Source of the DNA: a virus
Taxonomy: Duplodnaviria; Heunggongvirae; Uroviricota; Caudoviricetes
DNA: 41,468 nt
Strand: one strand, 5' to 3'
Virus record (IMG/VR): IMGVR_UViG_2541047699_000015
This document shows positions 6,195 to 25,202 of the stretch, one piece after another. Under the pieces are notes generated by a model, which saw only the letters and a list, made by a program, of their open reading frames with translations, was not told where the DNA came from and searched no databases. Positions within the stretch are counted from its first letter, which is position 1. Each line of letters opens with the position of its first letter. The position numbers and the translations under genes are program-made.

Positions 6195-6212
6195 ATTACT
6201 AGTAGGCGCATA

Positions 6213-6234
6213 CCACGCCAGACGTGGTTTTTTT
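6213..6234 (+). terminator. Rho-independent terminator/attenuator in leader
   Basis: Hairpin CCACG-CCAGA-CGTGG followed by T7 run. Confidence 0.6.
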
Positions 6235-6389
6235 ATGCGTATAGCACAGTCATATCCGAATTATGGTGGGCTGGGCAGGGGCACCGAAAGGTGCGCCGGT
6301 ACCTACTAGGCCGGTACGCCAACCTTGTCCAGTTCACCACCAGCAATTGGCGTTGCGGTGGTGGGTAACTTACTAGTAGAGGTATCGCT

Positions 6390-6896
6390 ATGCCAGGCCA
6401 AAAAATCTCAAACGACGATCTGTATTGGTTAATTTCTAATTCTCCACTCCTTCTTATGCTAAGGCAAGAAAGTGCACCACTGGTCAGTGAATTGATTAGC
6501 TGTAGAAATAGAATGTGGGATGAAGGGGCAGATTTAGATACCAATTTGTTTGATCATCTTATGCAACTAGCAGTCGATAACAAGGCAAAACTACGCTCTG
6601 AATACAACGCTTATCCAGAAATAGCAAAATACCTTAACGCTGAAATACTTGGTGGACCAGGTCAACCAGACCTAAAAACAAAAGATGGTTACCCTGTTGA
6701 GGTGAAGGTAGATACTTTTTCTCCTTCAGCATTAAAACAATTATTAAGGTATATGGATGCTTCTGGCGCAGATTTTGGTTTTGCTTGTGCAAAAACTCTT
6801 TCTGTAAAACTCCCTGAAAACATAAAGTTCATCCAGTTAGATTATAAAGATAATTGCTATTTCGTCGTGAAAGATGGAGGCAATGAAAATGCGTAA
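6390..6896 (+). CDS. Hypothetical protein (accessory island)
   Basis: SD AGAGG 7 nt before ATG 6390; 168 aa; no family recognised; stop overlaps next start (ATGCGTAA). Confidence 0.6.
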   Translation: MPGQKISNDDLYWLISNSPLLLMLRQESAPLVSELISCRNRMWDEGADLDTNLFDHLMQLAVDNKAKLRSEYNAYPEIAKYLNAEILGGPGQPDLKTKDGYPVEVKVDTFSPSALKQLLRYMDASGADFGFACAKTLSVKLPENIKFIQLDYKDNCYFVVKDGGNENA

Positions 6897-7608
6897 TATA
6901 GCTATTGATAAGTTGCCGATAACAACTCATTGCAACATCCCTGTAATGACTACAGAAATGCTTGCTGATTTGTATGACACAGAACCCAAACTGATTCGTC
7001 AAAACTATCAACGAAATGCAGATCGATTCATTGAGGGAAAACATTGTTTCAAGCTGATAGGCGAAGAATTACGAGCATTTAAGAACGAGTCCTCTCAAAG
7101 AGGTTTGCTTAATATTGCACCAAAAGTAAGTCATCTTTTCTTATGGACCGCTCGCGGTGCAGCACGACATGCGAAAATTCTTGAGACTGAAAAAGCGTGG
7201 GAGGTCTTCGAAAAACTGGAAGATTGCTACTTCGACAGAAAACCCGCAAATGTCAGCGGAGATGTTCGTCTCTCAGGTGGAGCTGATTTATCAAAGGCCA
7301 CTCAGGTAATTGAAAAATTCATGCCCGCCATTATGGAGGCGATCAAGCTGGAAGACAAAAAAGAATACAGTGCCCCACTGAAGCCCGGCTACCGCAGTCT
7401 GATTCATTCTCCGTCTGGTGTTCTCGGCCTGACGGAGAACTCATTGCTGATGAATCTGCTGAATCAGTTGCAGGACGACGGGCATGATGTATCGGGCGCG
7501 GCGGCGGAGCTGACCACCATGTTCTGCTACATCGTCGGTGTGAGCAAATGCCTGCGTGATATCCAGACCCACGCGGAGTACATCAACGACAAAGCAGGAT
7601 TCTTCTGA
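6889..7608 (+). CDS. ORF6N-domain protein (phage antirepressor-like) with C-terminal domain shared with 5818-6075
   Basis: N-terminal segment VMTTEMLADLYDTEPKLIRQNYQRNADRF...LWTARGAARHAKIL resembles ORF6N domain of antirepressor-type proteins; start at ATG 6889 with SD GGAGG 8 nt upstream. Confidence 0.6.
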   Translation: MRNIAIDKLPITTHCNIPVMTTEMLADLYDTEPKLIRQNYQRNADRFIEGKHCFKLIGEELRAFKNESSQRGLLNIAPKVSHLFLWTARGAARHAKILETEKAWEVFEKLEDCYFDRKPANVSGDVRLSGGADLSKATQVIEKFMPAIMEAIKLEDKKEYSAPLKPGYRSLIHSPSGVLGLTENSLLMNLLNQLQDDGHDVSGAAAELTTMFCYIVGVSKCLRDIQTHAEYINDKAGFF

Positions 7609-7652
7609 CGGGCGGCGGCACAGGGATGTGCCTTTAAATAATTCTGTACAGA

Positions 7653-7696
7653 TTGCAGACCGGGGGTGAATAGCGTACTATTACCTTAAAGGTAAA
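7653..7696 (+). promoter_or_regulatory. Promoter (TTGCAG-N17-TACTAT) with overlapping operator ATTACCTTAAAGGTAAA
   Basis: -35 at 7653-7658; operator 7680-7696 starts 22 nt after -35; precedes gene 7738. Confidence 0.5.
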
Positions 7697-7737
7697 CCTG
7701 TTTTTATTTTATACCTGTAACTTACCGGAGATTAAAG

Positions 7738-8064
7738 ATGACAAAACTTGGATTCGTGATGAGAGGTCCGGTAAGAAGCGGAACTCATGCAAAGCGTAGC
7801 AAGAGTCGTATTTTTACTGGTAAGGTTGTAGCACGTAAATCAGCTATTGGCTCGTTCAATAGTGAAAATGCGGCATTGCGCCATATTTTTATCAGCACAA
7901 AGCCAAGAGCATCCGCTGATGTGCATACAATGTCTATTCCTATCACAAAGAATATCAAGCGGATAAAAAAGCTCTCATCTGCAGAATCAAAAGAGATATC
8001 TTTCCGCCAGCTTAACTCATTAGAAACGCATATGAAGGAAGAGGAATTCGATGTTTTTGAGTGA
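7738..8064 (+). CDS. Basic small protein, possible antitoxin-like partner of downstream gene
   Basis: SD GGAG 7 nt before ATG; 108 aa, basic N-terminus, acidic C-terminus; C-terminal RQLNSLETH faintly resembles YefM/Phd NSLEE motif; 14-nt overlap with next gene. Confidence 0.5.
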   Translation: MTKLGFVMRGPVRSGTHAKRSKSRIFTGKVVARKSAIGSFNSENAALRHIFISTKPRASADVHTMSIPITKNIKRIKKLSSAESKEISFRQLNSLETHMKEEEFDVFE

Positions 8065-8563
8065 GTATAGCGGGAAGGTTATACCTACTGGTGAGTTTAA
8101 AACTGATGACTTTCTGATTTCGCTAAAAGATGCTTTTAAACAACACTGGCGTCATGGTCATCATCCTGATCTGGGAAAAGATACTCTTTTTGAAAGACCA
8201 GACGAAGTATTAGGCTTCCATCTCAGAAAGGTTCATGTCAATATTGGTGAATATGCATCATATTCATACTCATGTACTGAACAGTGTTGGGATGAGTGGT
8301 CATATGGATTGATTGATGAACAAGGAAATTACAGGCCAAAACCAACCAGTAACGCATATCTCATATATGCAGTCAATGAAATAAGAGATGCAGCCTTACT
8401 AGCTTATTGGGACCCGCCCGCACACACCAAAGCTAACGCAAAAGTTTGGATGGATTCCGTATTGAATTTCACAAAATTATTTCATGAACGAACGAATACA
8501 GCTCCACTTAGTAGAAATGTTTATCCGTGGGATTATTCGTACAAATCCAAAAAGCCTGCATAG
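8051..8563 (+). CDS. Candidate YafO-like toxin family protein (tentative)
   Basis: Segments DAFKQHWRHGHHPDLGKDTLFERPDE and FHLRKVHVNIGE resemble remembered E. coli YafO (DFISYKRDGVLPDTFGRDALYDD, ERVAHIHLANE); from memory only. Confidence 0.4.
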   Translation: MFLSEYSGKVIPTGEFKTDDFLISLKDAFKQHWRHGHHPDLGKDTLFERPDEVLGFHLRKVHVNIGEYASYSYSCTEQCWDEWSYGLIDEQGNYRPKPTSNAYLIYAVNEIRDAALLAYWDPPAHTKANAKVWMDSVLNFTKLFHERTNTAPLSRNVYPWDYSYKSKKPA

Positions 8564-8644
8564 TAGTTTTTTATGGACGAAACAAAAGTCAGTGCTACAC
8601 TCATTGACGCCACATTGAGGTGGCTTATAGATGGAAATTTCACA

Positions 8645-8806
8645 ATGAAAAAAGCATTTGCTGCACTGTTCGTTTTGTTGTCTCTGGTAGCTTCAACTCA
8701 GGCCTTTGCCGGTCGTTGTCAGCACGACAGCGACACTGCTGCTGACGGCTCCCGCTGCGGTGGGCGTTCTGCGGATTCCCGCCCGGGTGGCGGTGGCATT
8801 CGTTAA
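8645..8806 (+). CDS. Small secreted Cys-containing peptide
   Basis: Signal peptide MKKAFAALFVLLSLVASTQAFA then 31-aa Gly/Ser/Asp-rich mature part with two Cys; start at ATG 8645 rather than track start 8573. Confidence 0.45.
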   Translation: MKKAFAALFVLLSLVASTQAFAGRCQHDSDTAADGSRCGGRSADSRPGGGGIR

Positions 8807-8828
8807 AAACAAGGCCGCGAAAGCGGCC
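8805..8828 (-). terminator. Rho-independent terminator ending the virion operon
   Basis: Minus-strand hairpin GGCCGC-TTTC-GCGGCC followed by TTGTTTTT. Confidence 0.65.
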
Positions 8829-8829
8829 T

Positions 8830-8841
8830 GTGACATGTCAC
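8830..8841. repeat. Palindrome GTGACATGTCAC, copy 1
   Basis: Perfect 12-bp palindrome; contains stop codon of lipoprotein gene; immediately upstream of terminator in direction of transcription. Confidence 0.8.
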
Positions 8842-9218
8842 GCAACGCAATTATTACCGCGCCATGTAACATTTTTAATAATCTTATCAGCACCAAACTC
8901 AACGTAAACAGAGCAACTGAAATGGAGTGTATAACCGCCATCAGTTGTTGCGTATGTGTTTGAATATATAGTATTACCAATTAGATTAGACGTAGTATTA
9001 TACGTTGTGGTTTGTGGTACGTTATAACTACCAGAGCTTGAGTAAACATACACTCTGTTTCCATCTGGAGATGTAAGCTCTCCCTGAGGATACCCCCACT
9101 GCTGAACCATTGCGTCTATACTCTGCCCGCGCCACGTAAGCATATTTCTTTCAAACTGTGCAGCTGACTGGCATCCAACGAGAAGCATAAATCCAAAAAT
9201 CAAAAATACTTTTCTCAT
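8838..9218 (-). CDS. Lipoprotein at end of virion operon (possible superinfection-exclusion or virion lipoprotein)
   Basis: Start at ATG 9218 with SD AGGGG; signal peptide with lipobox LLVGC; Ser/Thr/Tyr/Asn-rich mature protein. Confidence 0.6.
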   Translation of the reverse strand: MRKVFLIFGFMLLVGCQSAAQFERNMLTWRGQSIDAMVQQWGYPQGELTSPDGNRVYVYSSSGSYNVPQTTTYNTTSNLIGNTIYSNTYATTDGGYTLHFSCSVYVEFGADKIIKNVTWRGNNCVA

Positions 9219-9303
9219 AATTACCCCTATCATGGAAAAACAGCACCAATCCACAAATTAACTAGTTATTTTATTATTCTTCCGAACAATACAATTCCGA
9301 ATA

Positions 9304-9426
9304 CTACAAAGCCGAACCATGCCGCTGCACGCAACAGAGATTCCAATTGAAACCCATTTTTATCAAAATGTATGAATAGCATAAAAACGCTGCACATATT
9401 AGTACAATAAAAGTTATTTGAACCAT
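9304..9426 (-). CDS. Small hydrophobic peptide (about 40 aa), not in ORF track
   Basis: SD AAGGAG immediately after stop of upstream gene, 5 nt before second of tandem ATGs; product MVQITFIVLICAAFLCYSYILIKMGFNWNLCCVQRHGSAL; alternative is track ORF 9266-9454 which lacks an SD. Confidence 0.3.
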   Translation of the reverse strand: MVQITFIVLICAAFLCYSYILIKMGFNWNLCCVQRHGSAL

Positions 9427-9437
9427 CATATCTCCTT

Positions 9438-11912
9438 TTATTGCGGAGTGACATCCTGTGGTCGCCACCAGTATGTCTGGTTAAACTCTTTCTTCGAACG
9501 TTGCTCCATTTTACGCAAATAGCCTGGTGAAAAATACTCCTGCATCTGGTTAAAGATCATGTGATCGAGAGCCGCCTTCAAGTACCAGAGATTCGCACCA
9601 GGCATCAAACCTTTCCCCAGCTTCACCAGATCACCACCAGTCTGCTCACTCTTCCCTTCCACAGCATTTAACGGTATGCCCTGAGCAATCTTCACTACGT
9701 CATCAACCAGACCAGCTACCGGGCCAAGCATCGACGCCAGCGCGCCGCTTCCGTACCTAGTGTGATCTGACAATAAAAAGTCACCGTAAAGGCCAAGACC
9801 ACCACCTTTCAGTAGAGCACCAAGCCAGAATTTTGCGGCATCTTCTCCTGTCATCTCTCGAGGATTACGACCAGACGCAAGGTCGTTAAGTTGCTGCGAC
9901 AAAGCGCCAAGAATGGTCGTACTGGCAATAAACGTCGCAATATATGCCGCACGCCCACCAGCAGACGGCATACCCATAGCGCGTGACCAGTGACGCATAA
10001 CAACCGAGATAGGGAACGATTTAAACAGGAAAACACTTCTCGTTAATTCACCTTTCCATGTTCCACGCTGAATACCAGAACCGGTTATCAGTTGCTCACG
10101 TGCTCCCGGTGTAATAACAGCCATATCAACTTCTTCAGTTACGGCACCGAGCAGTTTACGCATTGCCTCAAATTTCACGCGTTCAGGCTCACCAAGATGT
10201 TTAACTGCTGAATCAGGGATACGCATAATGCTTTCCGGTGTCAGCATCGTATTATTACCGTTCCCCCAGTCCTCCTGTTTCGCCAGCTTCCATACGCTCC
10301 AGTCTGTGTCAGTAATCCCTTTGCTTTTCAGGATACGAAAATCAGAGTCATCGAGGCTACGAAGGTCTGGTGTCCGTGACACTACTTCTCCCAGGCTTCC
10401 CATCATGGTTACGCCATAGGCGCGCTTGTGCGCATCTGACCATGCTGTAAGCCCACTGGCACGCATTACCGCCGTTGCCGCCCAACGAGACACTGACGGC
10501 CCCATATTATCCATCGCCCAGCGGTTAACGCTGCCAAGTAGAGATTCCATCGCCAGACCAGCGCGGCGCGCCCGCGCAAGTTCTGTACGGTTCGTTGGGT
10601 CCATAGCTTCAAGCTGGTTGCGGAATAACTGGTTCATTGGAAGGTTGGTAACCTTCGCAGACAGATACATGGTTCCAAGATCAGAGAACGATGACAGCAA
10701 CGCGGATCCGAGTCTGCTGGCAACCAGCCAGTTGCGGATATTGTCAGACCATCGCGCGATGTGCGGATTCGCTACAGGCTGTGTCTTTCCGGAAATAAAG
10801 TTGTACAGATTCTCTGTGTTGTTCGCCAGCCGCTCGACTTTACCGGTTTTACTCGGGTTAGCTGTTGCCGTTTCTGCCTTCACCTGATCAAGAAGAGAGC
10901 GGAAAACATGATCGGGGTTTGGGCCATATGTTTCCACCAGTGCAATATCTTTACTGATACCTTCCAGGTGACAGACCATGATTTCCCATAGAGAGCGATC
11001 GCCATAAAGTTGCTGATATTGCAGATAGGAATCTGCATCTTTGAAATGTATCTGTCGTGATGCATTACCACGGTTAGCACGTGCGCCGGAAATTCGCATT
11101 CCGGTATCAGTAAGCTTATTCAGCCCACCAGTAGCGATCGTGTTATAAGCCTCTCCAAGAAATGAAGACAACTCTGCATCGTTCATCAGTTGTCCATCGG
11201 CTCGGATATAATATTTGCGATCCAGCTTACCTATAACATCGCTAACCCACTTATCCTTTGATACTGCCCCAACCTTTTCCATAGAATGATGTTGAGGGAT
11301 CCCCCAGTTTTCGAGATAGCCAATGTCCCCACCAGCATCATTAAACCGGCGGCGCAGCAGCTCTGTAACTTCTCTCCACGCCTTAGCACCGTTTCTTGCT
11401 TTAGCATTGCCAGTAGTTTGCCCCCGCATTTCATATACCAGGTCACGTACGCCCGCTTCATCTTCAAACAGACCAAAAAAGCGAGGATCAACTGCTTCGA
11501 ATGCCTCCTGCAATTGACTCAATGCATAATCACGGGTGGCTTTTGTTCTGGATTCAACAGAGAGGAAATTAGATTTACCGTCTGCATTAAAAGCTATAGT
11601 ACGGTTAAGAGCGCCAAGTTTCCCATCAGCCCCTTGATAGCTATTGATAAATTTATCCAATCTCTGACGCGCGGCTATAGTGAGAGCCACACGACGTTTC
11701 TTTAATGCCGCTTCTCGCTGTAATTCTTCAGATGCCAATTGTGCTGCTCGATATAGCCGCTCTGATTCGGAAAGTTGTCGCCACGACATAGGGTCATCAC
11801 GAGCAATGGAGCGCATATTTCGATAAATGCGGTCTTCAATGTTCTGTATTTCTCGCGCCGTTAACATGCGCTGCGCCGCCTGCTGAACCGCTTGTATACA
11901 TTCCTGTCTCAT
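9438..11912 (-). CDS. Internal virion (ejection) protein, T7 gp16 C-terminal-like
   Basis: 824 aa; segments FLFKSFPISVVMRHW and LASMLGPVAGLVDD resemble remembered T7 gp16 C-terminal region. Confidence 0.55.
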   Translation of the reverse strand: MRQECIQAVQQAAQRMLTAREIQNIEDRIYRNMRSIARDDPMSWRQLSESERLYRAAQLASEELQREAALKKRRVALTIAARQRLDKFINSYQGADGKLGALNRTIAFNADGKSNFLSVESRTKATRDYALSQLQEAFEAVDPRFFGLFEDEAGVRDLVYEMRGQTTGNAKARNGAKAWREVTELLRRRFNDAGGDIGYLENWGIPQHHSMEKVGAVSKDKWVSDVIGKLDRKYYIRADGQLMNDAELSSFLGEAYNTIATGGLNKLTDTGMRISGARANRGNASRQIHFKDADSYLQYQQLYGDRSLWEIMVCHLEGISKDIALVETYGPNPDHVFRSLLDQVKAETATANPSKTGKVERLANNTENLYNFISGKTQPVANPHIARWSDNIRNWLVASRLGSALLSSFSDLGTMYLSAKVTNLPMNQLFRNQLEAMDPTNRTELARARRAGLAMESLLGSVNRWAMDNMGPSVSRWAATAVMRASGLTAWSDAHKRAYGVTMMGSLGEVVSRTPDLRSLDDSDFRILKSKGITDTDWSVWKLAKQEDWGNGNNTMLTPESIMRIPDSAVKHLGEPERVKFEAMRKLLGAVTEEVDMAVITPGAREQLITGSGIQRGTWKGELTRSVFLFKSFPISVVMRHWSRAMGMPSAGGRAAYIATFIASTTILGALSQQLNDLASGRNPREMTGEDAAKFWLGALLKGGGLGLYGDFLLSDHTRYGSGALASMLGPVAGLVDDVVKIAQGIPLNAVEGKSEQTGGDLVKLGKGLMPGANLWYLKAALDHMIFNQMQEYFSPGYLRKMEQRSKKEFNQTYWWRPQDVTPQ

Positions 11913-11917
11913 TTAAT

Positions 11918-13720
11918 TTAACCTCTCAAGAAACACGCCACAGCGACATCAAACAGGCTGGAATCCTGTATTGCCTGCTCACTTTCCCTGTTCGCTTCAT
12001 CCAGTGCTTCACGCGCACTGCGCGATTGTGGATTACCATCATCATCCAGCACGGTGATTATCATGTCAGGTGATTCAAGCAGCGAGTCTTCAGCTATGCG
12101 CAAATCAATATCTCCTGCCTGATCTGACATCATTTTTTGTTCTGCCTGTTGCAATATTTTATCAGGCTCAAAAGGAGCTACTTCGTCTGGCGTCCTGACC
12201 TCTGCTGTTTTATAGAATGAAACAGCCTGAGCATTAAGTTCACTTTCTGCCTGCTGTCTCCGAGCCAGTTCTGCTCGAGCTTCAAAAAACTGACCGCCAG
12301 GCTCATGCGGTGCCAACGCGTTACGAGAAAATTCCAGGCGTTCTTGTGCCTGCCGGATTCGTTGGTCAATATCGCGAAGTCTGGCCTGTTTATCTGATCG
12401 AGCACGAGATAAAGCCTTACCGCTACCGGCTGGATCTTCTGCAAGAATTTGTGCGCGCTGTTCAGTGAGATTTTCAATAATTCGTTGGCTATTAGCGATT
12501 TCAGACTGGTAAACCTGTCTATCGCCACGCGGCAAAAGCTGCGCGGCCTGTTCTTCAAGCAACCGATTTTCTATAGCGCGCGCCGTTACTCCATCATCTA
12601 CAGATGACAGAGCCTCATTAACTGCCTGAGACAGCAGACTCTTGCGTCCAGGAATTTCACTGAAAGATGCAGACTCAACAATGCTGGCAACGTCTACAGG
12701 TCTCCCCTGGCTAACATCAGACATGGCTTTTCGCAGAGCCTGAATGTGCGAATTACGCGAAAGCACGTTGATCGGCACGCCGGGAGCAATATCAATTTCA
12801 GCATGATGAGCGGCATTCGCCGCCAGTGCAGCATCGATATCAACTGGTGAAAAATTTGGTGCGCTTGTAGACTCGCCGCGAGAGTTAATAAATCTGCCGA
12901 CACCACCAAACGCCACCCCAAGAACAGCATCAATAGCAATTGCCTGTCGATCCAACACATCATACTGGTTAGCCATTTCGCTATAGCCACCATCACGAAG
13001 CGTTTTTGCAGTAAGCCCACGCTGTGCCATACCGAACGCAATATTTGTACCTGCGGCATAGGCAATATCTGGCGTTGCACGTACTGCTGTTGCTGCGGCG
13101 CGTCGCACTGAACTTTCACCCGTCCGCGCAAGCTGAGCCGCCACACCTTCCGCCAGCGCACCACCAGCACGTAACCCGAGGCTCATAGGGATCAGTGTTC
13201 CGGCACCAGCAGTAATACCCTGCACTAATCCCGCTTCCTGCGCCGTCCTGAAATCAACACCCTGTGCTGTAAGCCGTTCAAACTCAGAAAAACCCTGTAG
13301 AGAAGTTACCGCCGCAGCACCTCCGACCGGACCACCGAGCGTTGTACCGACAACAGCCTGCCCGCCCATATCGAACAACCCATAAAGGACCTGCCCGGCG
13401 GTTCCGGTTGTCGCGGCATCAGGCGTCAGCCGCTTAACCTGCTGCTCTGCTAGTTTTCTCTGCTCAGCAATGTATGAAACTGAAGTGTCATTGATCGAGG
13501 TGTTTTCGTTAACAAACTGAGCAATCGGGGATACGATTTTATCCATCCCTGCCCATAGCAACTGATCTGGCTTTGCCACCAGCCCGGAGTACAAACCAGA
13601 CAATGCCGCTCCTACAGCATTGTCGAAAAAACCAACATCGCTGTTAAAGCCAGCTGGATTTGATGCTGCTTCGTCAAGCTGCTGATTCTGGTTTACTGGA
13701 TTAAGGCCAAAGTAACTCAT
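11918..13720 (-). CDS. Internal virion (ejection) protein, Gly/Ala-rich
   Basis: 600 aa, Gly/Ala-rich N-terminal half and charged coiled-coil C-terminal half; between gp15-like and gp16-like genes; ATGA-type overlap. Confidence 0.5.
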   Translation of the reverse strand: MSYFGLNPVNQNQQLDEAASNPAGFNSDVGFFDNAVGAALSGLYSGLVAKPDQLLWAGMDKIVSPIAQFVNENTSINDTSVSYIAEQRKLAEQQVKRLTPDAATTGTAGQVLYGLFDMGGQAVVGTTLGGPVGGAAAVTSLQGFSEFERLTAQGVDFRTAQEAGLVQGITAGAGTLIPMSLGLRAGGALAEGVAAQLARTGESSVRRAAATAVRATPDIAYAAGTNIAFGMAQRGLTAKTLRDGGYSEMANQYDVLDRQAIAIDAVLGVAFGGVGRFINSRGESTSAPNFSPVDIDAALAANAAHHAEIDIAPGVPINVLSRNSHIQALRKAMSDVSQGRPVDVASIVESASFSEIPGRKSLLSQAVNEALSSVDDGVTARAIENRLLEEQAAQLLPRGDRQVYQSEIANSQRIIENLTEQRAQILAEDPAGSGKALSRARSDKQARLRDIDQRIRQAQERLEFSRNALAPHEPGGQFFEARAELARRQQAESELNAQAVSFYKTAEVRTPDEVAPFEPDKILQQAEQKMMSDQAGDIDLRIAEDSLLESPDMIITVLDDDGNPQSRSAREALDEANRESEQAIQDSSLFDVAVACFLRG

Positions 13721-16230
13721 TGCGGAATATCTCCGGAGAATCTCTGACGCTTCTGTGTCAGATTAAGAACAACGGGAGAACCATCATCTTTCAGCAGATA
13801 ACCAGTACCAAGTTTCACCAGGTACTGACTATCGCCGTAACTTTGCAAACCATACTGACCAGGCGGTGTTTTTATCCCGGAGCCGACAACTTGTTCATTC
13901 CAAGCCTGATTAACCTGCTTATCGAATTGCTCTGCAGACATTCCCCACGGCAAAAGGACATTCCCCATTCCGTTATAGTCATGCACGCCACCTGTAGCTA
14001 CGTTAACAGCCTGTTTCCAGACATCATTGTCAATTTCGCCTGATACCACGCCTTTTTTCGCCATCACACCAGCGTAATAATCCTTTGCGATCTCGTATGC
14101 CATTGATGCGCCCTGAGCGTCACCAGCAAATGCATCCTTCACCATGTCAGAAAACTCAAGGCGAAGATCAGCATCTTTAGGCATCGGAATACCTTTCGCA
14201 TCATCAGTACCTTTACGAGCCGCCGCGCCAGCAAGAATTGTCTGCGCAGCGGTTTCAGGAGACACGGAAACATCCGGATTAAACCAGTTTTTTTCTGCCA
14301 AAATACCACCAGGCTTATCCATCAGTATCCCGGCAACGGCAGCAGATGGAGCGTTGGCACTGATCTGCTGTAGTGCTGACATATACACCTGCCCACCACC
14401 AGTGCTCTGCCTGATGGTATCGAGATATGCTGCCTGTTGGGAAACTGGAGCATCACGAAAGAAAACACCGATCTGATTGGCCTCGTCTTTGGAAAAGAAC
14501 GTCAGTGGAGTGCCATATGACTTAGCAAGGTCACTGACCTGAGCGGCACGCAAGGCAACGCTCTGTCCAAAGTTATCCTTATTGCTCATGTCGATAGGCT
14601 TTGCCTGTCCGGAGGCAAGAGAGAACTGCACAGGATCCGACTGCCGCTGCTTTATCACCTGATTTGCAGCCGAAACAACGTTGTCATAAAGAGTTGCGCG
14701 TGCCGCATACCCCTCCCCTGTATCACCAGTATCCGGGCGTAATTGCTCAACATATGCTGTAATGCTGCTTGTCGGCATGTTGCGGAAAGAGCCTATATAC
14801 TGTCCGGCGATCTGCGTATTCTTAAACTCGGTATATCGCAGGTTTCCTTCTCTGACTCCATAAGCTGCAATAAAATCATCCTCACCAGGTGGGTTAGGAA
14901 ATTCAATGCCACGCATATACGCAGCCGTCGCATCGCGAACCCGGCTGTCGAGCATCGTTTTATATTCAGCCTGCTGTTGTCTGGCTAGTGCATCAGTCTG
15001 TCGCAACACGCTGGCCTGATCTGATTCACTTAAAGCATCGAACCAGGCTACACCGGTATAACGTTTATTTTTTGTCGGTAGCTGAGAAAGCCCCAGCGCA
15101 GCACTAACACCTGCAGTTAACTGCTGATCACTGTATGGCTGGCTACCGTTTTCATGATGGATAATGGCTGCACAAAGCGCCTTCAGGGTATCAGGATTTG
15201 ATGCATCGAGAGGCTCATCAGCAGAAACGCCAAGTTGTTCGCACACTGCTTTGATATACGACATAGTGTCATTTTTATCAGTAGGCGGTGCCCAGCGATT
15301 AATTATCTCGCTGACGGTATCAATACCCTGCCGCTGATACGACATCAGGTTCCGCCCTAATGCACGAATACCGTGTTCAGGGGTTTCGAATTTGGCAAAG
15401 CGACCATCATCACCAGTCTGCCCAACCCACGGATTAGTTTTGCTGTATTCAAGATTGCCGGGGTTATTGTTGCGTATACCGCGGGTACGATCGGAAGAGC
15501 CACTATCTGCTACAGCACGGCGAGAACCAGCAGCAGTATCGCTTAACTCGCCGTTTTGCTGTCTTACCTGAAGATAGTTTGCTCCAATAGCATTTTGAGC
15601 AGTTGCTTTTGCTGTTGCTTCTTTAAACTCGATTTTCTTGGCCTGGATTTGCTCGTCACTCCAGCCATGTGCAATGCCGTAATCCTCAATTTGCTGGAAA
15701 GTTTGCTTATTAGCCAATACGTATGCGGCGTTGTCGCCATACAATGCTGCGGCATTTTTACCATTGTTCAGCAGCGTAGCCTGAAACTGGCCTTCTTCGT
15801 AGGCATTTATTTGCCCTATCTCGTGCCGCCCGGCCTGCGTAGTGAACTGAATGCGCTGCTGCTGCGCCTGCTGCATGAAAGCATTACGAGCCTGTTCATC
15901 CGGCAGCGACATAGCCAGTTGTTCGACCTGAGCATCAAACTGCTGCGTATACTCCTGACCTTTTCCAATAGCATTTTTCCCTTGCAGGTTAAGCAAACCT
16001 GTTTCAGGGTTATTCAGCAGATCGCTGCTTATCTGGCTTAAGCTAAGAGAAGCATCCTGAGCCATAGCAACATTCGCACGCTGTTTTGCCTGCGCAATAA
16101 TACCTGCATATTGCTCTGCAACATCGCCAAGTACATCACCGACATTTGGTGTCTGAAACGATGAGAATCCCTGCGTCGAAATCCCTCTGCTCTGAACCTG
16201 ACGGCCCGATGTTGTTGGTACAACTGGCAT
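13717..16230 (-). CDS. Internal virion protein with central lysozyme-like domain
   Basis: 837 aa; central motif RGIRNNNPGNLEY...WVGQ typical of virion-associated peptidoglycan hydrolase domains; SD AGGGGA before ATG 16230. Confidence 0.5.
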   Translation of the reverse strand: MPVVPTTSGRQVQSRGISTQGFSSFQTPNVGDVLGDVAEQYAGIIAQAKQRANVAMAQDASLSLSQISSDLLNNPETGLLNLQGKNAIGKGQEYTQQFDAQVEQLAMSLPDEQARNAFMQQAQQQRIQFTTQAGRHEIGQINAYEEGQFQATLLNNGKNAAALYGDNAAYVLANKQTFQQIEDYGIAHGWSDEQIQAKKIEFKEATAKATAQNAIGANYLQVRQQNGELSDTAAGSRRAVADSGSSDRTRGIRNNNPGNLEYSKTNPWVGQTGDDGRFAKFETPEHGIRALGRNLMSYQRQGIDTVSEIINRWAPPTDKNDTMSYIKAVCEQLGVSADEPLDASNPDTLKALCAAIIHHENGSQPYSDQQLTAGVSAALGLSQLPTKNKRYTGVAWFDALSESDQASVLRQTDALARQQQAEYKTMLDSRVRDATAAYMRGIEFPNPPGEDDFIAAYGVREGNLRYTEFKNTQIAGQYIGSFRNMPTSSITAYVEQLRPDTGDTGEGYAARATLYDNVVSAANQVIKQRQSDPVQFSLASGQAKPIDMSNKDNFGQSVALRAAQVSDLAKSYGTPLTFFSKDEANQIGVFFRDAPVSQQAAYLDTIRQSTGGGQVYMSALQQISANAPSAAVAGILMDKPGGILAEKNWFNPDVSVSPETAAQTILAGAAARKGTDDAKGIPMPKDADLRLEFSDMVKDAFAGDAQGASMAYEIAKDYYAGVMAKKGVVSGEIDNDVWKQAVNVATGGVHDYNGMGNVLLPWGMSAEQFDKQVNQAWNEQVVGSGIKTPPGQYGLQSYGDSQYLVKLGTGYLLKDDGSPVVLNLTQKRQRFSGDIPQ

Positions 16231-16242
16231 CTTATTATCCCC

Positions 16243-16782
16243 TTATCGACCGGTTGGAGTGCCAACAGCAGCAGAAATCGGCGCAGCCTTCTGAGAGAAC
16301 GGGCTCCACGTTCCGCCGCCCATCTGGTATGCACCGTATGCTTTTAGTGGTGCCGTTAACAAAGTGCTGGTCATCGATGATTTAGCAGCCGACTGAGCAG
16401 CAGCCCCCTGTGCCTGAGCATTCATTCCCTGAACCTGATACCCATATGCCTCACGCTGAGCATTATTCACTGTCGTTAACGCATCAAGAGTGCCGAACTG
16501 AGCATTATCCGCAAAAACGTCAAGAGCTGTTCCGCTACTTAATTCCGCACCGGTAGCCCCCATAGTGGCCGCCGCAGTGCCTGAGCGTTGACGCATTTCA
16601 CGACGACGCTGATCCGCTTCAATATTCCCACGATTGATTGAATCCTGTGCCTGAGCTTCAGCAATTTCAGCATTCCGATCAGCTATGGCTGACTGGTATT
16701 TTGCCTGCTTGCTCTGGCTGTACATTGACGCGGCTGTGGATGCCACTGTGACGGCAACCAAAGCGATGGCTGGGTTACACAT
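16243..16782 (-). CDS. Internal virion protein B (T7 gp14-like)
   Basis: 179 aa; C-terminus APISAAVGTPTGR matches remembered T7 gp14 C-terminus APIVAAKGTKTGR; Ala/Gln-rich. Confidence 0.6.
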   Translation of the reverse strand: MCNPAIALVAVTVASTAASMYSQSKQAKYQSAIADRNAEIAEAQAQDSINRGNIEADQRRREMRQRSGTAAATMGATGAELSSGTALDVFADNAQFGTLDALTTVNNAQREAYGYQVQGMNAQAQGAAAQSAAKSSMTSTLLTAPLKAYGAYQMGGGTWSPFSQKAAPISAAVGTPTGR

Positions 16783-17246
16783 TATTTTCTCTCCATGTGA
16801 AATCTGTGGAAATTAAGACCAAGAGCACCATAAGGCGCGGCTTCTTCAAGCCTGAATCCAAGCCAGTGCAGCCATGCTTTGGCAACATGGTTTCGCTCGT
16901 CGACGTAGTTTTCCAAGCGCGGATAAACTGCCAGCATCTGCTGCAATACAGGGCGGCAGTGGCGCAGAAATGTCTTCTGATATTTTTCAATACGGCTGGT
17001 CCCGACCAGCCATGGCGTACCATTGCCACCGATCATTGACGCCGGAGATACACCAAACATGGTTACCAGCTCTCCGTTCGCGAACCCTGACCAGGCCATA
17101 GTCGCAGTGCGCAGACCAACACGCAGCGCATCTTCGGTAGTCATCAGCGATACCGCATACAGTTCGTCAATATCAGCCTGACGAACATCCGGCAAAATCA
17201 TCTGAAGATGCTCTTCGGTAGCGGGAATAATTCGAACATCGATCAT
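16782..17246 (-). CDS. Virion protein, possibly T7 gp13-like internal virion protein A
   Basis: 154 aa, position between tail tubular B and gp14-like genes; assignment by synteny only. Confidence 0.4.
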   Translation of the reverse strand: MIDVRIIPATEEHLQMILPDVRQADIDELYAVSLMTTEDALRVGLRTATMAWSGFANGELVTMFGVSPASMIGGNGTPWLVGTSRIEKYQKTFLRHCRPVLQQMLAVYPRLENYVDERNHVAKAWLHWLGFRLEEAAPYGALGLNFHRFHMERK

Positions 17247-19717
17247 CAGAATCCCCCAACAGTAAGGCGAGGAATAACGGCAAGAACAGACAGCGGCAAC
17301 GGGTCAAGCTGACGGATTTTTACACGTCCGTTTTTGCCCCAGTTACTGTCCAGTTTCACTTCTACTTTTCCGGTAGCATCATCAACAGGATCATCGTAGA
17401 ACTCGAATTCACGCTGTGGATATTCGTACCATTTACCGCCGGGCGTAGTCGCCCAGATGCCGCGGCTGGCATTCACAACCAGAGTAACGGACGGGATCAC
17501 CTGTTTTTTGTCCAGCAGCGTTTCCTGTCCGTTAATGTTGATATCCAGTGTTTCGAATTCAGCAGTTATTGGCAGGCCGATGTGAACTACAGCCCCCGGA
17601 GATTCCAGCGTGACGGCACCTCCGGAAACCACTTTCTGTGGTTCCACGTTCGCATCAGAGAGAATGTTTACGGTCTGGCCTTCAAGATGAGACAGGCCTC
17701 CAAATGTCCGGCGCGCCATCTGCCAGTTCGTGGTGGCCACATTCCTGAGGGATGGCGGGACGTTCCTGTTAGCACGAACCACTACAGCGGTATTGCTGGT
17801 TACAGAAATAATGTCGCAACGTAATTCTTTTGACACCTCATCACCAGTATCAGGATCAGTTCCGGTATAAGGGAACTGTAGTTGCGCGCCGACATCACTA
17901 CTGGTGAAGTACGCACCACCAGAAACACTGATTGTATATTCCGCGCGGTAATCCCATTCACCAGAACCACCAGTGATGGTCATCGTTCTGTCAGACGTAT
18001 TTCTTCCATCATAGCTAAGGCCAGAATCAACAAAGAAAGCATCTTCATCGCTGGTAAATAAACGGCTGGACAGTCGCTCGATGTATCTCACTGTTTGCCC
18101 GTTAACGGTTCGGTTAACGACGAAATACACCGCATCTTCATTTCCTTCGCTGATACTGCATGTGCTTTCATATTTTCCGGTACTGGATTGTGGTGCCCAT
18201 GCAAAAACCTGCTGATCACGCAAATAGGTCATCACCAGTAATTTACCGTCATCACGAATGCAGAAGGCGCTGGAGTAAGGGACAATAGAGAAGCACCAGT
18301 CAACAATACTGTGCTTCTGAAAAAGATGATTGGCAAGGATGGTCAGGTCGTTCCCCTGATAGCCGTCAACATCGAATGAGTAGGCCAGATCACGGACAAC
18401 ACTGCCTTTCTCCTGGACGAACAGAGCAATATTCGCCACGGCAATTGGTGGGACATTGCTCGAGCCATTTGATCCCTGAGAGCTGAATGCAAATGATGAT
18501 GGGGTAAGCACTTTGTTCTGGTCGCCAGTGATGACGTACTCACCTCCGGAAGTCAGCGCCACCAGCGAACCAACATCAATCAGGTGACGGATCTCATTAA
18601 CCTGACGCCCGGCATAGGTGTAGATAATTCTGTCGTCATCCTGCGTAGGATTGCTTTTGCCAAAATCCTTATAATCCCCGGTACGGCTGGCCCAGATAGT
18701 CTGAGGAAACGCAGTCGATGCGGCGAAGTAAAGACGTTGTTGATAATAAACAACAGTGCCAGGATAACCATTAACACTGTTCCAGGCATATTTAGCCCAT
18801 TTATAGCTGGCATTATCCTCGCCAACTACCTGCGAAGGGATATAGGAAATCACCTCGGCAGTTGCAGTAGTTCCATTTGCAGCAGTGATACGGGCAATGC
18901 CAAAACCACTGTGCAGATATTCCCACTCAATGCCAGTATCATCATCACCGGATCCGCCCCAGCCATCCCATGATGTGCCTTCTGTATGCGAAGGGCGCAA
19001 AGTACCTGTTTTGCCTGCTTTAACGGCGCGATAGTAGTTACTGTCTGCTCGGCGAATATCGCCAATCGACGTACTCTTACTGGTTTCCCATACCGGCACA
19101 GAATCCACTGCAGGCTGTTCCAGATAGAACAATTTGCCTACCTGCTCCGCGCCAAAAATAGAGGCGCTTGCCGTTAGCGTAATTGTCCCGGTGCTGGCGC
19201 TGGCATAAACCGTCACTGACTCGTCAATATTGATATCTTCAAATGGCCCGTTCTTCGTTACCACATCAACCAGTTGCCAGTTGTCATGCGCATAGCGGCG
19301 CAACTCTTTCGGCGGGTATGCCGGATGAACCAGCGTAAGCACGTCTGCGCTTTGCGTGAATTTAATTCGGAACAGATCGGCTTCAGTATATGGCGTGGAA
19401 ATTTCATAAATAACATTGCTGCTGTTCAGCACCAACGCACCATCTTTGATAACGCGCATGTACTGGTGTCCGAACTCCAGAGCATAAGTCTGAACCGTCG
19501 AGAACTGGAACGGGATCAGGCGGCATTTCCGATTTGGATATTTGGCGGCACCGACAAAACGCGTACCAGGTCGATTCTCAACGCCGCCATACTGCCGCAC
19601 GATAAAGTTATCGCACTTGCGCAATGCCACCTGGTACTTCGCCATGTCGATACGTCCGTACAACGACGGTCCAATCTCACCACCAGCAAAGCTGGGCTGG
19701 ATCCAACTGATAGCCAT
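17246..19717 (-). CDS. Tail tubular protein B (T7 gp12-like)
   Basis: 823 aa; size and position after gp11-like gene; N-terminal pattern loosely resembles T7 gp12; start overlaps upstream stop (ATGA). Confidence 0.55.
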   Translation of the reverse strand: MAISWIQPSFAGGEIGPSLYGRIDMAKYQVALRKCDNFIVRQYGGVENRPGTRFVGAAKYPNRKCRLIPFQFSTVQTYALEFGHQYMRVIKDGALVLNSSNVIYEISTPYTEADLFRIKFTQSADVLTLVHPAYPPKELRRYAHDNWQLVDVVTKNGPFEDINIDESVTVYASASTGTITLTASASIFGAEQVGKLFYLEQPAVDSVPVWETSKSTSIGDIRRADSNYYRAVKAGKTGTLRPSHTEGTSWDGWGGSGDDDTGIEWEYLHSGFGIARITAANGTTATAEVISYIPSQVVGEDNASYKWAKYAWNSVNGYPGTVVYYQQRLYFAASTAFPQTIWASRTGDYKDFGKSNPTQDDDRIIYTYAGRQVNEIRHLIDVGSLVALTSGGEYVITGDQNKVLTPSSFAFSSQGSNGSSNVPPIAVANIALFVQEKGSVVRDLAYSFDVDGYQGNDLTILANHLFQKHSIVDWCFSIVPYSSAFCIRDDGKLLVMTYLRDQQVFAWAPQSSTGKYESTCSISEGNEDAVYFVVNRTVNGQTVRYIERLSSRLFTSDEDAFFVDSGLSYDGRNTSDRTMTITGGSGEWDYRAEYTISVSGGAYFTSSDVGAQLQFPYTGTDPDTGDEVSKELRCDIISVTSNTAVVVRANRNVPPSLRNVATTNWQMARRTFGGLSHLEGQTVNILSDANVEPQKVVSGGAVTLESPGAVVHIGLPITAEFETLDININGQETLLDKKQVIPSVTLVVNASRGIWATTPGGKWYEYPQREFEFYDDPVDDATGKVEVKLDSNWGKNGRVKIRQLDPLPLSVLAVIPRLTVGGF

Positions 19718-20322
19718 CAGGACAACCTCGCAATGGTAAACTCGTCAACCGGTGGCTGTGGTTCCTGTGATTCATTCTGGCTATGCGAGCCAGCACTAAG
19801 AATCACGCGATTGTACATATTGAGGGCAAACGTACCGAGGTCTGCATTCCCAGTCAGCGCCATGTTAATAGCTGCCGCAAGACGCCAGGCCAACGCCTCC
19901 ATAAAAATGGCATCAAACATGTTCACATCTGTAACGCGAGAGACATACTTGAGCCATGCCTGAGGCTGGTCTGTGTAGATCAACTTTCCTGTTCCGTTGG
20001 TGTCTGCACCAACTTCGTACTGAACGCGCATTGCTGCTGTTGGATTGCGTACACCAGGAAGCATAATTTCAGTAATGCGCAGACAATCTGACGGGTACTG
20101 GTACGCATATTCCCAGTCAGGCGGTGGATTGCTCGTATCTGCAAGCGCCACGCGTTTGGTAGCAAAGTTCCAGTCAAAATCAGAAAGCACAGTATCACGG
20201 CAGGCCTCAAAGTGCAGCGAACATTCCCCCGCTTCCTTGCTGGCTTCCGTCAGGCTGTTAATGCTGCGGCTGTTGCCAATATTGGACAGCGCACGATTAC
20301 AGATCTCTACTACAGAGGCCAT
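19717..20322 (-). CDS. Tail tubular protein A (T7 gp11-like)
   Basis: 201 aa; N-terminus VVEICNRALSNIGNSRSINSLTEAS resembles T7 gp11 NDILASIGEPPVSTLE; SD GGAGGTGA before ATG 20322. Confidence 0.55.
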   Translation of the reverse strand: MASVVEICNRALSNIGNSRSINSLTEASKEAGECSLHFEACRDTVLSDFDWNFATKRVALADTSNPPPDWEYAYQYPSDCLRITEIMLPGVRNPTAAMRVQYEVGADTNGTGKLIYTDQPQAWLKYVSRVTDVNMFDAIFMEALAWRLAAAINMALTGNADLGTFALNMYNRVILSAGSHSQNESQEPQPPVDEFTIARLS

Positions 20323-23229: not shown

Positions 23230-23526
23230 TCACTCCTGTTCACTGGCCTCTTTGGCCATCTTCAAATACTGTTCAGGGCAATGCGCCATAACGCGCTGAA
23301 ACAGTTCCAGCGCCAGATTGCGTTGCCCCTCATTAAATGCCATTGCCATAGCGTCCATCGGTGAGATAGCGGAAAACACACGGCCTTTCTCCAGCACCGA
23401 CCAGACAACGCGACGCCCCTGTTCACTGCTCATGACAAAGCAAATGTCATCAATTTCACGCTGTGCCATGTCACGTTGCTTACGGGCGTTTTCTTCTTTC
23501 AGTTGATCGTCTTCGTAATCTGTCAT
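23230..23526 (-). CDS. Small acidic head-module protein
   Basis: 98 aa, start overlaps portal stop (ATGA). Confidence 0.5.
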   Translation of the reverse strand: MTDYEDDQLKEENARKQRDMAQREIDDICFVMSSEQGRRVVWSVLEKGRVFSAISPMDAMAMAFNEGQRNLALELFQRVMAHCPEQYLKMAKEASEQE

Positions 23527-25202
23527 TGTGATTGCCCACCCTGACCACTAACTGCATTCGCCATAGCTGACAAAACACTCGGATCCGAAGTTTTAGCTTC
23601 GCTTAGCGTCTTGGCACCCTGTGCCGCCGCCATCCCCATCGCCATCATTTGTTGCTGCTGTTGTTGCTGTGCCCGTTGCTGGCGAGCCTGCTCAACCTGT
23701 TCCTGCGGAACAATGACGGTTGGAGACACTCCGGACATATCAGCGAATGCATCGATCGCCTGATCAACGTTGAGTTTGTCGAGAGCTTCTGGTTTCGCTT
23801 GCGCAAGTTGACCAATGAAGTTGACCGTAGACGCCAGACTGGACAGGCCGATAGACTTCTGCGCCTGAGCCATGACGGAAATGTATTCGACCTTCAGGGG
23901 CATACCTTCCATCACGTCAGGCGGTGGCGGCAGCATGTTTTTACGCACCATCATCGAGAAAGCGCGGTCAATGAGAGGATTAAGACATTCGTCGTTCAGA
24001 CGCTCCAGAACCGGCCCCAACATCAGAAGTTTTTCTTCTTTCATTTCGATCACCGCTTCAACAGGCATCGAGCGGGTATTGATGTTCTGCAACATCATGA
24101 ACAGATCGACAAAGTAGGCGCTGTTAATGATTTGACGGGTGTCCTGAATGTCTGCCACCAAATCTGCTGTACTGGGGTTAACCAGATAAGCAGGCCTGAA
24201 ACCATCCTGACCAGTAATCAGATCGATATACGTGATGTCGCCAGGAAGAAGGGAGGCACGCTGATTCTTGAGGGAAGTCGGAGCAACCATCGGCGGATTG
24301 GTGGCTTTATCAATCAACTGCGACTTGCGCTTCTGGAGAAGCTGCAATGCCTTAACAGGTCCAAGCGCCAGCATACCCGGGCATGATGATCCATAAACAT
24401 CTTCGCCGTTAACTTCCCAGCGCGGAGCCATAATTGGAAACTCATCGAATCCGGACTCACGCAACAACTTGTCGTTATCGCCACCAACCTCGTAATAAAC
24501 CGATTTGAATGGCTTGTTCTTGCTATCCAGCTTCGATGTATCGCGGTCAATGTTCGGGTAAACCGAATGCATCACTTCAATCCACTTCTCGTAGGTTCCG
24601 CTTTCCCACATGCTTTTTACGGATTCGCTGACGTTATTTAGCCCGAACTCCTGAACAAGCTGACGAACAGTCATAGAGAACTTGCGAAAACAGGTGTCCA
24701 CACTGCCACGAGGTGAGTTAGCCAGGTAGTAACTGCCTATCGGGAATGGCATTGTGCGAATGATGTCCTCGTCATCCTCCAGCACTGCCATTGCACCAGT
24801 GCTGTATGTGCCGAGGCTTCCGTATAACTGCGGCAGCGACTGATAGAGATTCGACTTATTGAACATATCGTTCATGCGGTTCTGCACCGCCTCAAGCCAC
24901 AACTTAACAGGGCCATAATCCATCATTTCAGGATCTGGCGTAGCCAGGCGAAACCACGGACGCGCGGGGCTTGTGATGCCTGACATCATGCCGCTGGCGA
25001 GAGTGCGCGCCGCCATAGTCCCGGTCGAATCAATAATGCGTGTATTGCGTCGATCGTTACGGTTGACCTCAGAAGTCAGAAAGCGGGAACCACGCGGGTT
25101 GATGTAATCACTCAACTCGCGCCAGTGCGGCTCGAACGACTGACGCTCGCTTTCAAGTTGTGCGAACTGTTTGTTCAATCGCTCTTTAGTTGTTTCCGCC
25201 AT
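23523..25202 (-). CDS. Portal protein
   Basis: 559 aa, position upstream of scaffold and capsid, Gln/Ala-rich C-terminal tail; SD GGAG 8 nt before ATG 25202. Confidence 0.65.
   Translation of the reverse strand: MAETTKERLNKQFAQLESERQSFEPHWRELSDYINPRGSRFLTSEVNRNDRRNTRIIDSTGTMAARTLASGMMSGITSPARPWFRLATPDPEMMDYGPVKLWLEAVQNRMNDMFNKSNLYQSLPQLYGSLGTYSTGAMAVLEDDEDIIRTMPFPIGSYYLANSPRGSVDTCFRKFSMTVRQLVQEFGLNNVSESVKSMWESGTYEKWIEVMHSVYPNIDRDTSKLDSKNKPFKSVYYEVGGDNDKLLRESGFDEFPIMAPRWEVNGEDVYGSSCPGMLALGPVKALQLLQKRKSQLIDKATNPPMVAPTSLKNQRASLLPGDITYIDLITGQDGFRPAYLVNPSTADLVADIQDTRQIINSAYFVDLFMMLQNINTRSMPVEAVIEMKEEKLLMLGPVLERLNDECLNPLIDRAFSMMVRKNMLPPPPDVMEGMPLKVEYISVMAQAQKSIGLSSLASTVNFIGQLAQAKPEALDKLNVDQAIDAFADMSGVSPTVIVPQEQVEQARQQRAQQQQQQQMMAMGMAAAQGAKTLSEAKTSDPSVLSAMANAVSGQGGQSQ

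Follow-up and report, generated by a model that had tools for sequence, protein, structure and literature searches.

The stretch of DNA analysed here, hereafter the window, is the 41,468-nt IMG/VR virus record IMGVR_UViG_2541047699_000015, and its region 9438-20322 is, with a rough probability of 0.93, the tail and DNA-ejection operon of an intact temperate podophage of the phiV10/epsilon15 type (genus Uetakevirus), carried as a prophage between guaA and yfgI of Escherichia coli. The T7-type kinship of the tail genes, which a first-pass annotation of the sequence had put forward, is real yet already published; the finding is correct and contains nothing new. The novelty implied by that annotation falls away, since the genus is well described and the T7 kinship is found both in the literature (PMC4819975) and in the RefSeq notes of epsilon15.

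Identity and integration site of the prophage

In a megablast search against 50,697 phage records, region 9438-20322 was covered to 94-95% at 96.9-98.4% nucleotide identity by the Escherichia phages HEMP4, vB_EcoP_ZX5, phiv142-3 and phiV10, and Salmonella epsilon15-type phages matched it at ~74-76% identity. The gene map of the window is collinear with that of phiV10, in which the block corresponds to phiV10p14 to phiV10p20. Seven of the nine virion proteins compared (adaptor, nozzle, gp13-like protein, the 600-aa and 824-aa internal proteins encoded at 11918-13720 and 9438-11912, portal and capsid protein) share 97.5-99.5% identity with their phiV10 counterparts; the other two are the muralytic protein (13717-16230; 89.5%) and the gp14-like protein (16243-16782; 63%). 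The nucleotide and protein identity to phiV10, together with the collinear map, places the element in the genus Uetakevirus, the capsid markers of which are also present: a major capsid protein of the Pfam family PF20911 GP7 (1e-148) and a gp10 staple protein of the family PF21628 Gp10-like (7e-52). The genes at 16243-16782 and 13717-16230 form a mosaic patch between flanks of 97.5-99.5% identity and correspond to the ~6% of the block outside the megablast matches. The left arm (1162-9500) is mosaic, with a coverage of 34-48%.

The first 1.16 kb of the window is host DNA, containing yfgH (lipoprotein) and yfgI/DUF5384 (1-1161, plus strand), E. coli core genes present in 5,422 of 5,426 complete genomes. 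At its right end, the window stops on the start codon of a tyrosine integrase gene with a P4-type arm-binding domain (40212-41468, minus strand; Pfam Arm-DNA-bind_3, Phage_int_M and the catalytic Phage_integrase domain), as the first-pass annotation had proposed, and the window is cut at gene boundaries at both ends, in the style of a prophage-prediction tool. In E. coli strain ECSC054, a syntenic prophage of this type sits between guaA and yfgI, with guaA flanking the integrase. Because host genes lie at the left and guaA lies beyond the integrase, the whole prophage is inside the window and no phage genes lie beyond it. The junction of yfgI with the lysis cassette was found in 523 of 5,426 complete E. 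coli genomes (~10%). Relatives of the adaptor occur on 382 IMG/VR contigs, the 80 listed being 99-100% identical, and an identical copy of the 600-aa protein is encoded on 681 contigs. The homologue search with the 600-aa and 824-aa proteins returned solely proteins of 87-100% identity, which inform on prevalence and provide no deep alignment.

All open reading frames (ORFs) of the module were recovered on the minus strand, where the first-pass annotation had placed them, packed head to tail with overlaps of 1 or 4 nt and gaps of 5-12 nt, consistent with a single translationally coupled operon. Defective prophages are common in E. coli, and this one could likewise be a decaying remnant whose module has ceased to function as a virion gene set. 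That is very unlikely, because the module genes contain no internal stops, the structural ORFs keep their full length, with 97.5-99.5% identity to ORFs of plaque-forming phages, and the full phiV10 gene complement, from the integrase to the lysis cassette, is retained between guaA and yfgI. The near-identical phage ZX5 is plaque-forming, temperate and, by transmission electron microscopy (TEM), short-tailed (PMC9782041). By analogy, the prophage would form a short-tailed particle as well.

T7-type homology of the tail and internal virion proteins

Family alignments were built from annotated genomes, on the epsilon15 side from the window, epsilon15, Carin-1, BPP-1, Ab31, KL4, HTVC024P and Olaya, and on the T7 side from T7, SP6, phiKMV, gh-1 and P-SSP7. 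They were compared all against all with hhalign in a matrix of 80 cells, and the expected pairs were rerun with residue numbering. The seven expected pairs scored P values of 6e-14 to 6e-3 in the matrix and of 7e-14 to 7e-5 in the rerun, while all 72 of 72 mismatched control pairs stayed at P values of at least 0.05; the gp15 column was without a significant partner. This comparison with T7 gp8-gp17, taken together with Pfam and PHROG matches, upholds the T7-type gene order and homology claimed for the module, which extend over the portal, gp11, gp12, gp13, gp14, the C-terminal part of gp16 and the N-terminal domain of gp17. When T7 proteins were used as single-sequence targets for the family profiles, gp8 (3e-10), gp12 (6e-4), gp13 (2e-3) and gp16 (6.5e-4) were still reached. 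At the level of sequence profiles, the tail and ejection block is distantly yet specifically T7-like. The same assignments of tubular tail A and B and of the internal virion proteins (IVPs) IVP-A, IVP-B and IVP-D were made for epsilon15 by Hardies 2016 (PMC4819975).

The portal gene (23523-25202, minus strand) lies beyond the coordinates of the block and belongs to the same tail machine. Its product is a member of the T7 gp8 family (Pfam PF12236 Head-tail_con, E = 3e-187), aligns with gp8 at P = 7e-14 (aa 11-497 vs 15-481) and gave no match with the P22 portal in hhalign. The adaptor, or tail tubular protein A (19717-20322, minus strand; 201 aa), aligns with gp11 at P = 3e-6 and a probability of 88% (aa 3-195 vs 12-189). 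It belongs to phrog_394 'tail protein', is 99.5% identical to phiV10p14 and matches the 'Connector Protein' of Cobetia phage Carin-1 in PDB (8ck1_E, E = 4e-26). Its listed ORF begins 3 nt upstream at a GTG, and the ATG at 20322 agrees with phiV10p14. The link between adaptor and gp11 is absent in hmmsearch against PDB and with a single-sequence target; it is supported by the epsilon15 RefSeq note, in which HHpred relates epsilon15 gp11 to T7 tail tubular A (3j4b). The nozzle, or tail tubular protein B (17246-19717, minus strand; 823 aa), matches the 'Tail Nozzle' 8ck1_A at E = 1.5e-217 and aligns with gp12 at P = 4e-10 over the central ~250 residues (aa 293-551 vs T7 gp12 308-578), the same region as reported by Hardies 2016 (PMC4819975). 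Relatives of the nozzle were found in 221 phage records, many of them annotated as tail tubular B. In PhiXacm4-11, a Xanthomonas podophage like Olaya of the alignments, with a similar two-gene nozzle and as a putative member of this nozzle family, the nozzle superposes on T7 gp12 (bioRxiv 10.64898/2026.02.16.706137).

The gp13-like, GNAT-like protein (IVP-A; 16782-17246, minus strand; 154 aa) shares phrog_308 with T7 gp13 (1.8e-62 and 1.1e-42, respectively), aligns with gp13 at P = 2e-8 to 2e-10 (aa 25-153 vs 14-136) and matches gp13 of P-SSP7 by BLASTP (4e-6). The gp14-like protein (IVP-B; 16243-16782, minus strand; 179 aa) is recognized by Pfam PF24072 T7_gp14 at 32.8 bits (cut-off 27), the single T7 family found among the seven module proteins at E <= 0.01, and aligns with gp14 at P = 7e-5 (aa 36-142 vs 48-157). 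Its C-terminus, APISAAVGTPTGR, does resemble that of T7 gp14, APIVAAKGTKTGR, as noted in the first-pass annotation, and BLASTP gives E = 0.002 for the pair. The Prokaryotic Genome Annotation Pipeline (PGAP) names its orthologue in ECSC054 'virion core protein, T7 gp14 family'. By analogy, we infer that the gp14-like protein may form the outer-membrane part of the ejection channel.

The module could also be read as a generic or P22-like podovirus tail machine, for which 'T7-like' would be no more apt than 'P22-like'. Swanson and Cingolani grouped epsilon15 with P22 in gp14 and gp16 trees and noted its 'small' gp15/gp16 (PMC8954989), Hardies 2016 placed T7, P22, N4 and epsilon15 in one 'transient tail homology group' (PMC4819975), and the terminase and capsid protein of the prophage are not T7-like. 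However, under equal conditions (family profile vs single sequence), T7 gp8, gp12, gp13 and gp16 scored 3e-10 to 2e-3, whereas the best P value among P22 gp1, 4, 10, 26, 14, 7, 20, 16 and 9 was 0.035. The portal falls into the T7 gp8 Pfam family, and strong matches of tubular tail B were reported solely between epsilon15 and T7 (PMC4819975). The P22-like assignment was rejected on that best P value of 0.035 for any P22 protein, and we regard it as very unlikely.

Three large internal virion proteins

The muralytic protein (13717-16230, minus strand) occupies the position of gp15; PDB and PHROG matches locate a muralytic domain in its centre (aa ~249-403), and it is predicted to be a large internal virion protein. 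The lysozyme-like domain and its RGIRNNNPGN motif, both pointed out in the first-pass annotation, are confirmed: the motif lies at about aa 250-259, within the domain, which matches solved muramidase and endolysin chains (9vvp_L, 9e-39; endolysin 7q47_A, 2e-17). The protein further matches PHROG 992, 1044, 873 and 7182, named endolysin or 'tail injection transglycosylase', and the epsilon15 RefSeq record relates epsilon15 gp15 to a lytic transglycosylase by HHpred. In the phiKMV and SP6 records, a lysozyme-type domain is annotated in the proteins at the gp15 position, so that a muralytic domain in this position has a precedent inside Autographiviridae.

The 600-aa protein (11918-13720, minus strand), a predicted internal virion protein of the lineage-specific family phrog_1145, had no Pfam, PDB, T7 or P22 profile match. 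Its family hidden Markov model (HMM) matches the N-terminal part of three relatives of 2,078-2,126 aa (P0139, P0238 and P0147), the C-terminal ~830 aa of which match the 824-aa protein; the products of 11918-13720 and 9438-11912 are therefore one polypeptide in some relatives.

The 824-aa protein (9438-11912, minus strand) is homologous to the C-terminal ~40% of T7 gp16 (IVP-D). It aligned with gp16 at P = 3e-7 (aa 317-424 vs 805-906) and, with an alignment of 65 sequences, at P = 9e-8 over aa 305-783 vs gp16 793-1312, reaching the gp16 C-terminus; seven control families stayed at P values of at least 0.19. In the global mode of hhalign, its aa 1-803 were aligned with gp16 430-1318, leaving ~430-490 N-terminal gp16 residues unmatched, and the N-terminal transglycosylase of gp16 is absent from it. 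Its family comprises 5,126 cluster representatives, and searches of PDB by phmmer and family-profile hmmsearch returned nothing for it. Its epsilon15 orthologue, gp17, is the IVP-D of Hardies 2016, in which the epsilon15 orthologues of the muralytic and 600-aa proteins were listed as gp15 (IVP-C) candidates (PMC4819975).

Several results weigh against reading the block as a T7-type ejection operon of an intact prophage. Pairwise BLASTP against T7 gp11, gp12, gp13, gp14 and gp17 was silent but for the gp14 C-terminal motif, and HMM-versus-sequence searches (phmmer, and family-profile hmmsearch against PDB) missed T7 gp11 and gp12, so the T7 link is a remote one, carried by profile-profile scores and published structures; the PDB sequences that these searches did reach were chains of Carin-1 (8CK1) and 9EFK. 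A single-sequence AlphaFold2 model of the adaptor had a predicted local distance difference test score of 38.9 and was discarded. In hhalign, the muralytic protein has no profile similarity to gp15 (P = 0.6) or gp16 (P = 0.8), and the 600-aa family, even in an enlarged alignment that includes the fused giants, gave no gp15 or gp16 signal (P = 0.3-0.5 against gp16). Neither protein has detectable homology to gp15 or gp16 by these tests, and their channel roles are deduced from position and size only. The virion location of the large proteins is taken by analogy from work on epsilon15 and its relatives, and the inducibility of the prophage is putative.

Consequently, the 'gp15-like' label attached to the muralytic protein in the first-pass annotation does not hold beyond position: it and the 600-aa protein are positional analogues of gp15 and gp16 only. 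Against the gp15 alignment both scored P = 0.55-0.9, and a gp15 homology was likewise not obtained by Hardies 2016 (PMC4819975).

The first-pass annotation had also proposed a gp16-like function split across 11918-13720 and 9438-11912. In its explicit form, the 600-aa protein would be the counterpart of gp16 residues ~1-490, stripped of the transglycosylase that would have moved to the muralytic protein, and the 824-aa protein that of residues ~490-1318. The second half of this proposal stands, as the 824-aa protein is collinear with gp16 793-1312. For the first half, the unmatched ~430-490 gp16 residues make up a stretch of similar length to the 600-aa protein, only 5 nt separate the two neighbouring genes, the 600-aa family is joined to a module like the 824-aa protein in the three ~2,100-aa relatives, and the muralytic domain is also annotated in the gp15-position proteins of phiKMV and SP6. 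Nevertheless, the 600-aa family lacks gp16 similarity even with the fused giants included, Hardies 2016 took the epsilon15 orthologues of both upstream proteins as gp15 candidates, and the fused relatives far exceed the length of gp16. Giant proteins stand at the position of the 600-aa and 824-aa proteins in Carin-1 (gp32; L084 16901-25465, 2,854 aa) and BPP-1 (Bbp10; L086 6187-12345, 2,052 aa), and they are similar neither to these two families nor to T7 gp15 or gp16 in the tests here, despite the listing of Bbp10 as an IVP-D homologue by Hardies 2016 (PMC4819975). The fused relatives and the unmatched N-terminal gp16 residues lend moderate support to a split gp16, for which homology is not demonstrated, and we hold the proposal tentatively, as a possibility short of probable. 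A broader version, in which the three large proteins are a rearranged gp15/gp16 ejectosome natural to the epsilon15 lineage, with the muralytic domain in the first and the gp16 body divided between the other two, is rather doubtful. If it were true, the series of split and fused forms among the relatives could be used to tell the gp16-type parts of the periplasmic tunnel from those of the inner-membrane channel.

Within the genus, ejection proteins change, by divergence or exchange, at a far higher pace than tail proteins: epsilon15 gp17 and gp16 are 28% and 32% identical to the 824-aa and 600-aa proteins, against 81-88% for the nozzle, adaptor and portal.

Tailspike

The tailspike (3159-5621, minus strand) begins with a gp17-type N-terminal attachment domain (aa ~1-165), has a K5 heparosan lyase as its body and carries an S74 chaperone at the C-terminus, as assigned from hhalign, PHROG, PDB and Pfam. 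The T7 gp17-like N-terminus proposed in the first-pass annotation is well supported by an hhalign P value of 1.5e-9 (aa 9-161 vs 8-155) and by three PHROGs (1640, 27277 and 15695) common to the N-termini of both proteins; this domain also matches the N-terminus of Dpo31 (8ck1/28lx) at 6.5e-30. The body (aa ~192-814) matches the K5 lyase KflA (PDB 2x3h) at 6e-185 and 9vvr at 1e-225, and Peptidase_S74 was found by Pfam at the C-terminus. Compared with the phiV10 spike, the global identity is 27%, and unlike in phiV10, no O-antigen acetyltransferase gene lies beside the tailspike gene. The gene is present in ~68 complete E. coli genomes (at least 99% nucleotide identity over at least 80% of the length). 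Its product appears to be an eliminase of the ElmA type that E. coli K5 strains carry on a prophage; one source lists ElmA, prophage and E. coli K5 together (PMC3594737). A K5-lyase spike on a Uetakevirus backbone is of some practical interest for work on capsule-specific phages or enzymes.

Proposed mode of DNA delivery

Starting from the gene identities, homologies, prophage boundaries and prevalence established above, a mode of DNA delivery can be proposed, the stoichiometry, core location and channel roles of which are predicted. Onto the gp8-type portal, the gp11-like adaptor would assemble as a ring and the gp12-like nozzle as a hexamer, giving a short tail of portal, adaptor and nozzle as in the solved Carin-1 tail 8CK1 (PMC13317679) and in T7. 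In Carin-1, the adaptor is a 12-mer and the nozzle a 6-mer, with six spike trimers. Six trimeric tailspikes would dock via their gp17-type N-terminal domains, and their K5-lyase bodies could cut the heparosan capsule, allowing the particle to reach the outer membrane. An internal core of the gp14-like protein and the three large proteins would be packaged and then ejected before the DNA, forming a channel across the envelope, in which the muralytic domain of 13717-16230 may open the peptidoglycan and the protein of 9438-11912, resembling the gp16 C-terminus, may form the inner part. In epsilon15, a T7-like core stack is known and the ejection conduit has been reviewed (PMC8954989). Expression would depend on the host RNA polymerase, with no phage polymerase, under the circuit of repressor, Cro-like protein and antirepressor.

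Relation to known phages and significance

The phages phiV10, HEMP4, vB_EcoP_ZX5 and phiv142-3 are temperate and share with the prophage the genome-wide gene order, the integrase type, the repressor and the lambda P-type replication genes. phiV10 differs in its O157-specific spike, where a K5 heparosan lyase is found here, and in the accessory genes at 5803-8563 and 39430-40209. The type member epsilon15, a Salmonella phage with cryo-electron microscopy (cryo-EM) of both virion and infection, has the same module order and is identical to the window at 88% (nozzle), 85% (adaptor), 81% (portal) and 70% (tailspike N-terminal domain) of residues, whereas its three large proteins are 56%, 32% and 28% identical and its receptor-binding domain and seroconversion genes are different ones. 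Carin-1 is the closest relative with a solved tail (PDB 8CK1); its nozzle is ~45% identical over the full length and its gene order from portal to tailspike is the same, but it has a single 2,854-aa protein in place of the 600-aa and 824-aa proteins, a marine host and no annotated integrase.

With T7 and other Autographiviridae, the prophage shares the order of adaptor, nozzle, gp13, gp14, large internal proteins and fibre. It differs from them in having no RNA polymerase, in being temperate with an integrase, and in carrying genes on both strands. The first-pass annotation was right that no phage RNA polymerase is encoded: all ten ORFs of at least 300 aa are otherwise assigned (tailspike, three internal proteins, nozzle, portal, terminase, capsid protein, RecT and integrase), and the prophage, bounded by host genes, does not continue beyond the window. 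The differences from T7 extend to the capsid protein, scaffold/protease and terminase, which are unrelated at profile level, to three large internal proteins instead of two with no gp15 homology, to additional genes for capsid cement and staple proteins, located between those of the capsid protein and the adaptor, and to an accessory block that separates the ejection genes from the tailspike gene and runs in the opposite direction. In hhalign, the capsid protein scored P = 0.13 against gp10 and the protease/scaffold P = 0.018 against gp9, both within the control range; kinship of capsid and scaffold to T7 was rejected on these values, the capsid protein being of the epsilon15 GP7 family with a gp10 staple. 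Because it has no RNA polymerase, is temperate and has an unrelated capsid, the element is outside Autographiviridae. P22 resembles it as a temperate podophage with tailspikes, ejection proteins, an antirepressor and accessory genes between the ejection genes and the tailspike, but no profile similarity of any P22 virion protein to the epsilon15-group families was found in hhalign with single P22 sequences as targets, and a homologue of the P22 needle (gp26) is absent here.

The genus and its temperate lifestyle are already known from the phiV10 and epsilon15 records and from ZX5 (PMC9782041), as are the T7-type homologies (PMC4819975), the RefSeq HHpred notes, the PGAP names and the solved tails of relatives. 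Sequencing of temperate podophages from the epsilon15/phiV10 group goes back to 2003-2009, cryo-EM images of such phages exist, and annotation pipelines already name the gp14-family and connector proteins, so that the module carries little weight as a discovery. As a clean, typical example, it shows T7-type machinery for tail and ejection at work in a temperate genome that encodes no RNA polymerase of its own, and it illustrates the fast divergence of ejection proteins relative to tail proteins.

Lysogeny, replication and accessory genes

The temperate lifestyle claimed in the first-pass annotation is supported by the integrase, a helix-turn-helix (HTH) repressor, a divergent Cro-like gene and an antirepressor. 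The repressor (35255-35839, plus strand; 194 aa) has two HTH motifs (Pfam HTH_3/HTH_26; phrog_8) and the divergent Cro-like gene (34870-35100, minus strand) encodes 76 aa (phrog_35). Pfam detected HTH domains alone in the repressor, with no LexA/CI-type S24 peptidase domain. The antirepressor gene lies at 6874-7608 (plus strand; Pfam ORF6N; phrog_1760 anti-repressor, 1.5e-97). A repressor without a peptidase domain together with an encoded antirepressor suggests antirepressor-driven induction; the Cro/CI switch proposed earlier is lambdoid in layout and probably induced in this way.

For replication, a lambda P-family helicase loader (32906-33706, minus strand; Pfam PF06992, 1.5e-56) and an initiator with HTH_36 and DnaT domains (33688-34503, minus strand; Pfam PF13730 and PF17948) are encoded. 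The earlier description of these genes as lambda O/P-like is clear for the P family and partly apt for the initiator, the N-terminal half of which matches PHROG 1032 and 391 ('replication initiation O-like') with no match to the Pfam lambda O family. No Pfam family of N- or Q-type antiterminators was found among the early- and late-region ORFs scanned, mostly those of at least 80 aa.

The accessory block at 5803-8563 (plus strand) is oriented oppositely between the ejection genes and the tailspike and contains the antirepressor gene and five ORFs of unknown function (phrog_450, 18738, 5933, 1651 and 3716). Its content, together with 8838-9254 (minus strand), differs from that in phiV10 and the ECSC054 prophage. 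The ORFs 7738-8064 and 8051-8563 overlap by 14 nt; a YafO-toxin match of the latter was dropped as under the Pfam cut-off, and a PADLOC scan of the accessory ORFs gave no defence system. A calcineurin-like metallophosphoesterase gene (39430-40209, plus strand; Pfam Metallophos, 2e-15) adjoins the integrase gene, in a place taken by a DUF1382 gene in phiV10 and the ECSC054 prophage. A tRNA-Arg gene (anticodon TCT; 25851-25927, plus strand) separates the portal gene from the terminase gene, on the strand opposite to the structural operon, and the same tRNA is annotated in the ECSC054 prophage.

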